Assembly: GCF_044647545.1 (NCBI RefSeq)
Contig: NZ_CP172818.1
Source: Escherichia coli
GTDB lineage: Bacteria; Pseudomonadota; Gammaproteobacteria; Enterobacterales; Enterobacteriaceae
Reading direction: 5' to 3' (one strand)
Length of the DNA stretch: 64,000 nucleotides
The notes beneath the pieces were generated by a model, which was not told the origin of the DNA, did no database searches, and saw only the letters and a list, made by a program, of their open reading frames with translations. The position numbers and the translations under genes are program-made. Numbering within the stretch: the stretch's first letter is position 1; every line of letters starts with the position of its first letter. Shown here piece after piece: positions 53,703 through 57,609 of this stretch.

Positions 53703-54044
53703 TTATGTTGGCGTTTTCTATTCAGTATAGAAGTGGGAGCGACTGGGCGAGATGCGGAAGTTCTGGAATATTTCTTTTTTTGGTGATGGTGAACTGATTG
53801 TGAGTGAAGCAATTTAGCTACTTTTTCAATGTGGCAAGTTATGGCACAGCTGGCTGGTGGCGAAGAATTTTGACGATTGAGGCATGCAGAAAAAACGGGC
53901 TCAGCTTCAGTTGATCAAATGGGGAGTGAGAAGTCCGAAACAGGATTCACTGTATAAATAAACAGCTATTTTGCTGAGGAAGCGTAAGATAACGGCGGGT
54001 GCCTGAAGCTTTCCGGTTTCAGGTTAACTCTGAGGTCTGGAAAG

Positions 54045-54233
54045 ATGAAGCCCCAGGACGATATTTCTATCAACCCTGGGGCTGCCACTCCAAACCCGAA
54101 CAATTTGGATGGTAGTCCCTTCTTCGCATGGAGGCAATATAAACATGCTGACGAAATATGCCCTTGTGGCAGTCATAGTGCTGTGTTTAACGGTGCTGGG
54201 ATTTACGCTTCTGGTCGGCGACTCGCTGTGTGA
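54045..54233 (+). CDS. mokE: mok-like overlapping reading frame of the hok locus
   Basis: 62-aa ORF overlapping the hok start in another frame, as in hok/mok/sok loci. Confidence 0.35.
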
Positions 54234-54297
54234 GTTTACGGTGAAGGAACGTAATATTGAGTTTAAGGCTGTTCTCGCTTACGAACCGAAGAAGTAG
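54145..54297 (+). CDS. hokE: Hok-family type I toxin (50 aa)
   Basis: [50 protein letters not shown]; single transmembrane helix; GC hairpin in 3' UTR. Confidence 0.85.
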
Positions 54298-54418
54298 CCG
54301 TTGTGCGGGGAGCAATCCCCGCATATCCGGTTGTCAGGTCAGGATGGTAAGGCACCTGCTTTACACTTTCGCCCGTGGTCAGTGATGGCTGCGGGCGAAT
54401 CGTACCAGATGTTGTCAA

Positions 54419-55048
54419 TTAATCGTGTTGGCACAGCGTTATGACTATTTTTTCTTTTATCTGCCAGTGCACAGCAAACTGCTCATCCTCTAGTCGAATG
54501 ATGATCTGCTGTTTATTCCAGCTAATTATCTGATAATCCAGAAAACCTTGAGCGGCCTGTATCTTGCTTGCCTTAAATGCGCTTTCTTTGGCGGAAAATG
54601 CCAGTGTCAGCGCCAGAGAAAAGGTTAAACCGCATTCTGCGAGTCGCTCGTGTTCTGCTGGTGTAATAATGTTGTCTGTCAATTCTCTTGCGGTTTGTAC
54701 AGAGAAAATCTCTTCGATATCAATGCCAATCGGTTGACGAGATACCACGGCTAATGCCGTAGTCCCACAGTGACTAATGCTGCCGTATACCCCCGCAGGC
54801 CACACAGGTTGGCGTAGCTCGCCGATTGCGGGCACACATTTATAGCCATATTCCCGCAGCGCATAAACTGCAGCGATCCGTCCGGCTAAATGCTCTGTTT
54901 TACGTTTACGTCCAGCGTGTTGCAGTTGCGCGTAGTGTGGCAGCCAGAGTAAATCCTGCTCACAAAAACTCGCCGGATCAAACTCAACAAAATGCAGCGT
55001 ATGTCCTACAAAGGGGAGGGCGGTATGCGTAGTTTTCATGTCGACCAT
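54419..55048 (-). CDS. entD: enterobactin synthase 4'-phosphopantetheinyl transferase EntD
   Basis: 209 aa from MVDMKTTHTALPFVGHTLHF; ORF-track extension across the REP element rejected. Confidence 0.88.
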   Translation of the reverse strand: MVDMKTTHTALPFVGHTLHFVEFDPASFCEQDLLWLPHYAQLQHAGRKRKTEHLAGRIAAVYALREYGYKCVPAIGELRQPVWPAGVYGSISHCGTTALAVVSRQPIGIDIEEIFSVQTARELTDNIITPAEHERLAECGLTFSLALTLAFSAKESAFKASKIQAAQGFLDYQIISWNKQQIIIRLEDEQFAVHWQIKEKIVITLCQHD

Positions 55049-55076
55049 ATTAGAGACTGATGACAAACGCAAAACT

Positions 55077-55174
55077 GCCTGATGCGCTACGCTTATCAGG
55101 CCTACGTGGTCCTGCAATATATTGAATTGGCAAGATTTTTGTAGGCCGGATAAGGCGTTCACGCCGCATCCGGC
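55077..55174. repeat. REP/BIME-type repetitive extragenic palindromes between fepA and entD
   Basis: GCCTGATGCGCTACGCTTATCAGGCCTAC and GTAGGCCGGATAAGGCGTTCACGCCGCATCCGGC in inverted orientation. Confidence 0.8.
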
Positions 55175-55213
55175 ATGAACGACGCGCACTTTGTCAACAA
55201 TCTGACGTTAGCA

Positions 55214-57454
55214 TCAGAAGTGAGTGTTTACGCTCATATACCACGTACGTCCCGGCTCGTTATAGGTATACGCCCCGGCACCTGCGATATAGTTGGCTCC
55301 TGCCAGATCGCCCGTGGTCTGGGCATTACCCGCACGCCACAAACGTTTGTCGAACAGGTTGTCCACGCCGCCGGTCAGACTGACATTCTTCGTCACATCC
55401 CAGGTCGCGCTCAGGCCAACAATGCTGTACGGGCTGATTTCTTTGGTTTCCGGTCCAACCGCTGGCTGACCTTTATAGTTGTACTTCTTCGGCTGCTGCT
55501 TGCCGTACCAGGTGAAGGTTGTTTGCATCGACAAATCTTCCCGTGCCTGCCAGCTCAGCGTTGAGTTCAACGTATACTCCGGGATGATCGACAAACGGTC
55601 GCCCGTGGTTTTGTTTTCACTCTTCAGCATATAAGTGATGTTATTGGTCCACATCACCGTTTCGCTAACCGGTACGTTTAACGATCCTTCCAGACCTTCA
55701 ACCACCGCTTTCGGTACGTTATCCCACTGATAGAGATCGGTGCCGACTGCGTTTTGCCCTACAGCCACATAGCCCGCTTCAATCTTATTGCGATAATCGT
55801 TACGGAACCAGGTGACGCCCGCCAGCCAGCCGTCGCGTTTGAACTCCAGACCAATCTCTTTGTTGATGCTGGTTTCCGCTTTCAGGTCATCATTACCTTG
55901 CAGATAGCAGCCGCCCGCGCTGGCATAGCAACCCTGACCTTTACTGTAGAGAATGTAGTTCGGGTTAGTCTGGTACAGGCTCGGTGCTTTATAGGCGCGG
56001 GCAATGCCCATTTTCAGCGTGAAGTCATCGCCTAAACCTTGCGATATGTTCAGCGCCGGGCTCCAGTTATTGCCAACAATGCTGTGATGATCGAAACGCA
56101 GCCCCGGCGTTACGATGGTGCTGTCAGTCAGCTCCATATTGTTTTCGGCAAATAGCGAGAAAATTTCTGCTTTTGAATACGGGCTACGGTCGGTGGCACT
56201 CACACCATCAATAGCACCGCCAGTATTCGTCCCAGTGAGCGCCTGGGTGTTGGAACTTAAATCCTTCATCCGCTGCTGATTCCACTCCGTACCCAGCGTC
56301 AGCGTCTGGTTAACGAGGAAATCAATCGGCAGGTTAACTTCGCTGTGCAGCATCACGTCATCGAGATCGATATCGACGAAATCCTGTGTCGCTTTTTCGT
56401 TAAATTTCCCTTCGGTACCGCCCGCCAGACCTTCCGGAATACGCGAGTTACGGGTGTGTTCGTACTGCACCCAGTTGCTGGTGGTCACGCCGTTATCCCA
56501 GCCACCGTTCCAGGTCAGCGAGTAGTTCTGGCGATACAGGCGGTTGGTTTCATCGCCATATTTCGAGCGAGTGTAAGCGTCAGAGTTGGTGTTCTGAGTA
56601 TCACCCGCATACAGGTTACCCTGGCGGCTGTAGCCCGCTTCCAGTTCGAGTGATTGCAGAGGCGCGAAGTCCCAGCGCACTACGCCATTAATATCTTTGT
56701 TAATTACCCCTTCGCGCCCGGCTGGTAACGTCGTGGCATACGTTCCGGCACGCGCGGACTGATGGCCCTGGTTGATATCCCACGCGTCAGCCTGGGTTTT
56801 GTCGAGGTTGCCATACAAGCGGAAGCTGAATTCGTCGCCCAGCGGACCGGTCAGGCTGAAGTTGGTGCGTTTGGTGGCACCTTCCTCTTTATGTTCTGGC
56901 GCATTGAAATAAGCATCCCAGGAGCCGTGCCACTCACCGCTGCCTTTTTTGGTAATGATGTTAACCACGCCGCCCGCCGCGCCGTTGCCATAACGCGCAG
57001 CTGCCGGACCACGCAGAACTTCAATACGTTCAATCATTTCAGGTGGCACCCAGGAGGTATCACCACGGGTATCGCGCTCGCCACGCCAGCCCTGACGCAC
57101 TGAGTTACGGCTGCTTACCGGCTTGCCGTCAATCAAAATCAGCGTGTTTTCCGGACCCATGCCGCGAATATCAATCTGGCGGTTATTCCCACGCTGACCA
57201 CTGGTGGAGTTACCGGTCAGGTTAACGCCTGGCATGGTACGGATGATCTCCGACACATCACGGGCAACGGGGTTTTTGCGGATTTCATCTGCGGTGATGG
57301 TCGAAACGCCAGGCGCCTGCAAGTTCTGCTCGGCGGCGGTAACGACAATGGTATCGTCATGTGAAACAGGAGTATCGGTCGGCTCTTGTGCCTGTGCTAC
57401 CCCATAAATCCCCAGATTGACCAACAAGGCCAGGGAATGAATCTTCTTGTTCAT
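55214..57454 (-). CDS. fepA: TonB-dependent ferric enterobactin outer-membrane receptor FepA
   Basis: 746 aa from MNKKIHSLALLVNLGIYGVAQA; TonB box DTIVVTA; C-terminal aromatic residue. Confidence 0.94.
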   Translation of the reverse strand: MNKKIHSLALLVNLGIYGVAQAQEPTDTPVSHDDTIVVTAAEQNLQAPGVSTITADEIRKNPVARDVSEIIRTMPGVNLTGNSTSGQRGNNRQIDIRGMGPENTLILIDGKPVSSRNSVRQGWRGERDTRGDTSWVPPEMIERIEVLRGPAAARYGNGAAGGVVNIITKKGSGEWHGSWDAYFNAPEHKEEGATKRTNFSLTGPLGDEFSFRLYGNLDKTQADAWDINQGHQSARAGTYATTLPAGREGVINKDINGVVRWDFAPLQSLELEAGYSRQGNLYAGDTQNTNSDAYTRSKYGDETNRLYRQNYSLTWNGGWDNGVTTSNWVQYEHTRNSRIPEGLAGGTEGKFNEKATQDFVDIDLDDVMLHSEVNLPIDFLVNQTLTLGTEWNQQRMKDLSSNTQALTGTNTGGAIDGVSATDRSPYSKAEIFSLFAENNMELTDSTIVTPGLRFDHHSIVGNNWSPALNISQGLGDDFTLKMGIARAYKAPSLYQTNPNYILYSKGQGCYASAGGCYLQGNDDLKAETSINKEIGLEFKRDGWLAGVTWFRNDYRNKIEAGYVAVGQNAVGTDLYQWDNVPKAVVEGLEGSLNVPVSETVMWTNNITYMLKSENKTTGDRLSIIPEYTLNSTLSWQAREDLSMQTTFTWYGKQQPKKYNYKGQPAVGPETKEISPYSIVGLSATWDVTKNVSLTGGVDNLFDKRLWRAGNAQTTGDLAGANYIAGAGAYTYNEPGRTWYMSVNTHF

Positions 57455-57609
57455 TGTTTTATTCCTGCATTTTTGCCACGAATTGCAACTGTCGGGCATG
57501 GTCGTCATCAATACGACGCACCCCGCTACCGCGAAAACCTTTGATCCTGAAAGACACGCAGTGCAGTTGGTTAATTAATGTCCGCGCTTCCCACGGCGCG
57601 CCATTACGC

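Follow-up and report, generated by a model that had tools for sequence, protein, structure and literature searches.

The fepA-entD spacer and its repeat element

The window, a stretch of 64,000 nt of Escherichia coli DNA, carries around the site studied here the genes ybdK-hokE-entD-fepA-fes, with entD and fepA both on the minus strand. A query covering 54350-55350 (1,001 nt) was 100 % identical to strain WB61 and had matches in 5,425 of 5,426 complete E. coli genomes. The genes fepA and entD have been described as an operon with a Fur-regulated promoter (PMC10763504). With the RefSeq starts of K-12 and WB61, the spacer between them comprises 174 nt (55040-55213). In the order of transcription, the following features are present:

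55214..57454, minus strand: coding sequence of fepA, the ferric enterobactin outer-membrane receptor (RefSeq, 2241 nt in K-12 MG1655 (b0584) and in WB61)
55216-55214, minus strand: stop codon TGA of fepA, read from the sequence
55176..55213, minus strand: 5' part of the spacer, single-copy, holding TAA 55210-55208 and GTG 55189
55141..55175, minus strand: Y-type REP, on the mRNA strand UGCCGGAUGCGGCGUGAACGCCUUAUCCGGCCUAC, identified by an exact consensus match and a hairpin
55106..55140, minus strand: L linker of BIME-1, 35 nt, identified as a dispersed repeat and by Rfam RF02751
55076..55105, plus strand: Z1-type REP, inverted with respect to the Y unit, reading GUAGGCCUGAUAAGCGUAGCGCAUCAGGCA in the mRNA, identified by an exact match and a hairpin
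55040..55075, minus strand: 3' part of the spacer and leader of entD, without a Shine-Dalgarno sequence, including the legacy ATG 55048-55046
54419..55039, minus strand: coding sequence of entD, the 4'-phosphopantetheinyl transferase of enterobactin synthase, 206 aa (RefSeq; K-12 b0583, 621 nt)

Some observations were made on the surroundings of the two genes. Just downstream of entD lies the toxin-antitoxin locus hokE/sokE (53997-54297 in the window; 508-1852 and 1296-1684 in the comparison loci L001 and L002), where the Rfam sok model (RF01794) scored 79.4 bits at 53997-54153 on the plus strand. K-12 MG1655 has an IS186B between hokE and entD that is absent from the window, strain WB61 an extra Hok/Gef copy, and the Escherichia lineage L003-L005 two hok genes. 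Antisense to the 3' end of fepA, an ORF of 129 aa (55175-55564, plus strand) has its ATG at the edge of the Y REP; it is probably spurious.

The earlier note on this DNA had placed two inverted REP units in the spacer, at 55077..55105 and 55141..55174, and both were recovered there as exact matches. On the plus strand, the Z1 sequence GCCTGATGCGCTACGCTTATCAGGCCTAC (29 nt), which we take to be the consensus of this type, matched 55077-55105 with 0 mismatches; on the minus strand, the Y consensus GCCGGATGCGGCGTGAACGCCTTATCCGGCCTAC (34 nt) matched 55141-55174, also with 0 mismatches. By chance, 0 matches were expected, and none occurred in 100 shuffles for each unit. Both units terminate in ...GGCCTAC, presenting the terminal REP tetranucleotide GTAG/CTAC. 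They are imperfect palindromes able to form stem-loops, detected as the inverted-repeat pair I3, with folding energies of -21.3 kcal/mol (z -5.3) for the Y hairpin and -12.9 kcal/mol (z -3.3) for the Z1 hairpin. The arms 55092-55105 and 55141-55154 are 93 % complementary (pair I2). Folding energies were -44 kcal/mol (z -5.6) for the isolated BIME and -72.1 kcal/mol (z -5.3) for the RNA of the whole spacer. The Y sequence coincides over 34/36 nt with the consensus that the RepRanger authors give (PMC12306157). No further REP core was found anywhere in the 64-kb window. The repeats are extragenic, lying downstream of the fepA stop (55214) and upstream of the RefSeq start of entD (55039).

On the mRNA strand, the element reads Y REP, 35-nt L linker and inverted Z1 REP. 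BIME-1 elements are defined as a single-copy pair of a y and a z1 REP, inverted relative to each other and joined by a long conserved L linker that often holds an IHF site (PMC3333891). With BIME-1, also named RIB or RIP elements, the fepA-entD element shares the inverted y and z1 REPs, the single-copy arrangement and the long conserved linker with an IHF-like motif, and it likewise lies within a transcription unit, at a gene's 3' end. A structural difference was not observed; the IHF-like motif is one mismatch off WATCAANNNNTTR. The spacer repeat is one single-copy BIME-1 element at 55076-55175, flanked within the spacer by single-copy stretches of 38 nt and 36 nt. The RefSeq record of K-12 has no repeat_region feature at this spacer.

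The 1-kb locus query occurred at a median of at least 39 places per E. coli genome, and the BIME is its only repeated part. Among the matches listed for this query, one was on a plasmid and was restricted to query positions 792-826, the Y unit. The 41-nt flank 55176-55216, upstream of the BIME on the mRNA, had a median of one place per E. coli genome. The outer parts of the spacer contain an inverted pair (I4, 55190-55203 versus 55054-55067) with 86 % complementarity. A larger mobile unit with this pair as terminal inverted repeats was considered and rejected, the upstream flank being single-copy in E. coli.

A 61-nt query centred on the linker, including no more than 13 nt of each REP, had matches in 5,425 of the 5,426 E. 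coli genomes, with a median count of 23 per genome. The Rfam family ES036 (RF02751, a 43-nt model) scored 42.2 bits at 55098-55139 (minus strand), its gathering score being 37.6. Since the linker query recurs and ES036 matches above its gathering score, the L linker is itself a conserved repeat. The family naRNA4 (RF02564) matched a part of the Y REP (55144-55185, plus strand). A discrete small RNA of the ES036 or naRNA type, processed from the fepA-entD transcript and exerting a function of its own, would agree with these two matches, the first of which is on the transcribed strand. We consider it improbable: the ES036 model coincides with the BIME-1 linker, and because this linker recurs about 23 times per genome, the match indicates membership in a repeat and not a locus-specific gene. 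Moreover, the naRNA4 match of 38.4 bits remained below the gathering score of 59.5, and the spacer has no promoter-like site. Both ES036 and naRNA4 overlap portions of the BIME, which means that certain sRNA families in Rfam describe REP/BIME repeats.

At the DNA level, the L linker may be a candidate IHF site. The IHF-like motif ATTCAATATATTG (55115-55127, minus strand) agrees with WATCAANNNNTTR in 12 of 13 positions and in 8 of 9 specified bases; the window contains about 1.6 matches of equal quality per kb, and at this frequency the motif by itself is no proof.

The entD reading frame and its start codon

The program-made list of open reading frames presents entD as 54419..55189 on the minus strand, an ORF of 256 aa with a GTG start, in agreement with the earlier note, which had described a six-frame ORF running through the REP units to 55189. 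Upstream of GTG 55189, the frame is closed by TAA 55210-55208 and, before it, by TGA 55216-55214, the stop of fepA. The genes fepA and entD share their frame, and TGA followed by TAA one codon on forms a double stop ahead of the extension. A read-through from fepA into entD, suggested by the shared frame, was rejected because these two stops intervene. The ORF is open back to GTG 55189 because the BIME is without a stop codon in the entD frame. In the same ORF list, fepA is a second inflated call, adjoining that of entD: the mechanical ORF (55214..57511, minus strand) has 765 aa from a TTG at 57511 and is 19 aa too long, RefSeq FepA having 746 aa from 57454 (MNKKIHSLALL...).

The earlier note had held the extension of entD to be almost certainly untranslated and had proposed an alignment of EntD homologues and an inspection of the ribosome-binding site. 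The alignment (A1, 19 sequences) revealed conservation only from Met51 of the 256-aa ORF (ATG 55039) onwards. The EntD proteins of Citrobacter (207 aa) begin at the equivalent of Met51, and longer calls in other species have unrelated residues upstream. The N-terminus aligned among orthologues fits a start at 55039 and neither the 247-aa nor the 256-aa form. The limits of the domain models agree with this alignment. In the 256-aa ORF, Pfam PF17837 (4PPT_N) covered residues 87-150 and PF01648 (ACPS) residues 153-253; the NCBIfam equivalog model for EntD, NF007604, covered residues 48-256 with 424.1 bits versus a cutoff of 169. Residues 1-47 had no match to any domain model of Pfam or NCBIfam. 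Compared with the known Sfp-type PPTase EntD (NF007604, PF17837, PF01648), the ORF thus consists of a matching part, residues 48-256, and a leading part that matches nothing.

It is the dispersed repeat, present at dozens of places per genome, that encodes the extension. The AR Bank #0349 strain, one of 59 E. coli genomes without the BIME, has an EntD with the same accession as that of WB61 (WP_000858746.1). The 256-aa frame was open in seven of the eight BIME-bearing alleles examined; in the eighth, of strain A35 (L014), a T-to-A change at the equivalent of 55071 introduces an in-frame TAG into the extension. The fepA gene of A35 is annotated as a frameshifted pseudogene, so this TAG is weak evidence. 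Taken together, alignment, domain limits, RefSeq annotation, repeat nature, BIME-less alleles, the A35 TAG and the stable RNA structure around both upstream GTG codons support the view that the 42-50 additional residues are an artefact of ORF calling, not a part of EntD, and very probably untranslated, as the earlier note had it.

An N-terminally extended EntD that is really synthesized, starting at GTG 55162 (247 aa) or GTG 55189 (256 aa) and with a partly coding REP, is extremely improbable. Such a protein would be in line with the frame open across the BIME in most alleles and with the forms called by automated pipelines and deposited. Among the in-frame candidate starts, GTG 55162, located in the loop of the Y REP, also has the best, still weak, pairing to the anti-Shine-Dalgarno sequence (-3.7 kcal/mol). 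However, homologues other than those of BIME-bearing E. coli do not conserve the extension, it lies outside all domain models, and the same sequence resides at many intergenic places per genome. Both GTG codons are in or beside very stable RNA hairpins, the identical 206-aa EntD is encoded where the BIME is absent, and the frame is interrupted by the TAG in A35.

With the extension regarded as untranslated, two ATG codons nine nucleotides apart remain as candidate starts. The earlier note had put the conserved EntD N-terminus at 55048; this was off by 9 nt, the conserved and RefSeq-annotated start being 55039. RefSeq gives EntD with 206 aa from 55039 in K-12, WB61, AR_0077, AR Bank #0349, Nissle, O157:H7, A35, 7A and WCHEC96200, hence in every genome inspected. 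In alignment A1, Met51 is invariant and the only invariant initiator among the 19 sequences. The inspection of the ribosome-binding site upstream of 55048 was carried out and was nearly uninformative: a Shine-Dalgarno sequence was sought before ATG 55039 and before ATG 55048 and found at neither. As both codons lack a real Shine-Dalgarno sequence, this inspection cannot decide between them. The calculated duplex energies with the anti-Shine-Dalgarno sequence were -2.2 kcal/mol for ATG 55039 and +0.9 kcal/mol for ATG 55048. The only solved structure named EntD, 7bcz, aligns from residue 56 on and was uninformative on the N-terminus.

A start at ATG 55048 would yield the legacy form of 209 aa (MVDMKTTH...) and would also leave the BIME untranslated. 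This ATG is present in all eight BIME-bearing alleles examined, the NCBIfam EntD profile is 209 positions long and was aligned from ORF residue 48, and a 209-aa version of the exact protein is in GenBank. Against this start, BIME-less E. coli alleles and the Escherichia lineage L003-L005 carry ATA at this codon, Citrobacter has no aligned ATG, and 55048 lacks the invariance of Met51, the consistent use in RefSeq and any SD-like pairing. We therefore consider the 55048 start unlikely and a start of EntD at ATG 55039 probable, on the basis of the comparison and of RefSeq practice. The difference of three residues leaves the main conclusion, an untranslated extension, unaffected.

The exact EntD protein has been deposited in versions of 206, 209, 247 and 256 aa. 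The 256-aa form is in GenBank as ETE13210.1, and the 247-aa calls begin at ORF residue 10, GTG 55162. In the 90 % cluster that contains all four versions, the 247-aa form is the representative. A stop-free REP or BIME in the frame of a neighbouring gene misleads gene callers that rely on the longest ORF and on scoring of the ribosome-binding site. Inflated EntD calls can distort protein families, statistics on start sites and the clustering of pangenomes. A further EntD variant of NCBI source (P0010, 236 aa, from a cluster of 999 members) has the N-terminus MVDM... and a C-terminus that diverges after ...HWQIKEK into unrelated sequence, perhaps because the 3' end of entD has undergone an insertion or rearrangement in certain strains.

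Spacers without a BIME

A BIME-less spacer of 49 nt was present in 59 of 5,426 complete E. coli genomes; the BIME-bearing state, recognized by its unique flank, was present in 5,355 genomes, about 99 %. The Escherichia lineage L003-L005 and the Citrobacter loci L006 and L008 likewise have short spacers, of 48-51 nt. The BIME-less fepA-entD spacers lie at the following coordinates of the comparison loci:

L011, 1291-1339: BIME-less spacer
L010, 913-961: BIME-less spacer
L003, 1152-1200: BIME-less spacer
L006 and L008: BIME-less spacers as well

In an alignment of the two kinds of spacer, 156 nt comprising the BIME and its flanks stand opposite about 31 nt in the BIME-less alleles. The stretch of about 31 nt forms a G+C-rich hairpin of 12-13 bp with a predicted energy of -23 to -29 kcal/mol. 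Its purine-rich 3' arm, GGGGGAGG, is located just upstream of entD. In C. farmeri, the hairpin is followed by the T-run TTTTGGTTTT and was scored as terminator-like in the scan. The sequence of the hairpin varies between lineages and the pairing is kept. Since pairing is kept in the lineages despite the change in sequence, a stable intercistronic hairpin after fepA has to be seen as a conserved feature. In eight diverse BIME-bearing alleles, the spacer length was constant and 2 of 100 BIME positions varied.

The comparison shows that the BIME-bearing spacer, as far as can be read from the aligned alleles, has replaced an older and simpler intercistronic hairpin and did not arise by a clean insertion, and that both states still segregate in E. 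coli. In most E. coli, BIME-1 now supplies the predicted intercistronic hairpin after fepA. The polymorphism of BIME-bearing and BIME-less alleles offers a simple natural comparison. We put forward tentatively that, if the segregating alleles differ in the stability of the fepA mRNA or in EntD output, they would be a natural allele pair for gauging the effect of a BIME-1 within an operon.

The two states also bear on the view of the BIME as a neutral passenger, meaning a repeat of selfish or hitch-hiking nature in a tolerant spacer, with no measurable effect on the expression of fepA or entD. Both states persist in E. coli with near-identical flanks and identical EntD, the spacer scan gave no terminator- or promoter-like site, and the IHF motif is imperfect, all in accordance with neutrality. 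However, an intercistronic hairpin was kept in every lineage examined despite the turnover of sequence, which suggests that the structure matters. The predominance of the BIME-bearing state and the low variation within the BIME also argue against a neutral passenger, as do the other REP/BIME loci published as mRNA stabilizers or attenuators (PMC3333891). We regard the neutral reading as less likely than not.

Proposed role in the operon and comparison with known systems

Our overall explanation, which we hold with high confidence, comprises a BIME-1 in the fepA-entD spacer, a start of EntD at 55039 or less likely at 55048, an extension that is an artefact, an ancestral hairpin that was replaced, and a role as stabilizer or attenuator that is inferred. 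Judged by analogy, the most likely role of the spacer structure would be to stabilize the mRNA and to attenuate downstream expression. The genes fepA and entD would share a transcript made from the Fur-controlled fepA promoter, and in this transcript the REP hairpins would form a very stable structure. By blocking 3'-to-5' exonucleases, this structure would stabilize the fepA segment of the message. The same structure may partly attenuate or uncouple the expression of entD, a gene without a Shine-Dalgarno sequence. The expected outcome, abundant FepA and scarce EntD, would fit a receptor on the one hand and, on the other hand, an enzyme that acts catalytically and of which little is needed.

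The scan of the spacer detected no promoter-like site, by which an internal entD promoter is neither supported nor excluded. The same applies to an intrinsic terminator: no G+C-rich hairpin with a T run was detected in 54900-55400. For REPs at other loci, roles as terminators or attenuators, as mRNA stabilizers and in IHF binding have been reported (PMC3333891).

The BIME-1 in the fepA-entD spacer and the inflated EntD call belong to already known biology. A literature search on REPs between fepA and entD or on the EntD start codon revealed nothing relevant in the collection covered. Only two points are mildly new: how many alleles lack the BIME, and that an ancestral hairpin was replaced. The main value of the analysis is annotation hygiene; it does not change the current understanding.

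For K-12, Armstrong et al. 1989 (Mol Microbiol) and Coderre and Earhart 1989 (J Gen Microbiol) reportedly described REPs in the fepA-entD spacer, together with weak expression of entD, when these genes were sequenced. A ribosome stalling induced by REPs is said to occur at a distance of roughly 15 nt (Liang, Rudd and Deutscher 2015); the first REP of the fepA-entD spacer begins 38 nt past the fepA stop, farther away than this distance. The REPs of malE-malF and hisJ-hisQ are said to act as intercistronic stabilizers or attenuators, according to Higgins, Newbury, Stern and co-workers and to Espeli et al. 2001. Like these, the fepA-entD hairpins are located within an operon and separate an upstream gene that is highly expressed from a downstream gene that is weakly expressed. 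The locus adds to the textbook examples of an intercistronic BIME at the boundary of a strongly expressed gene and a weakly expressed one.
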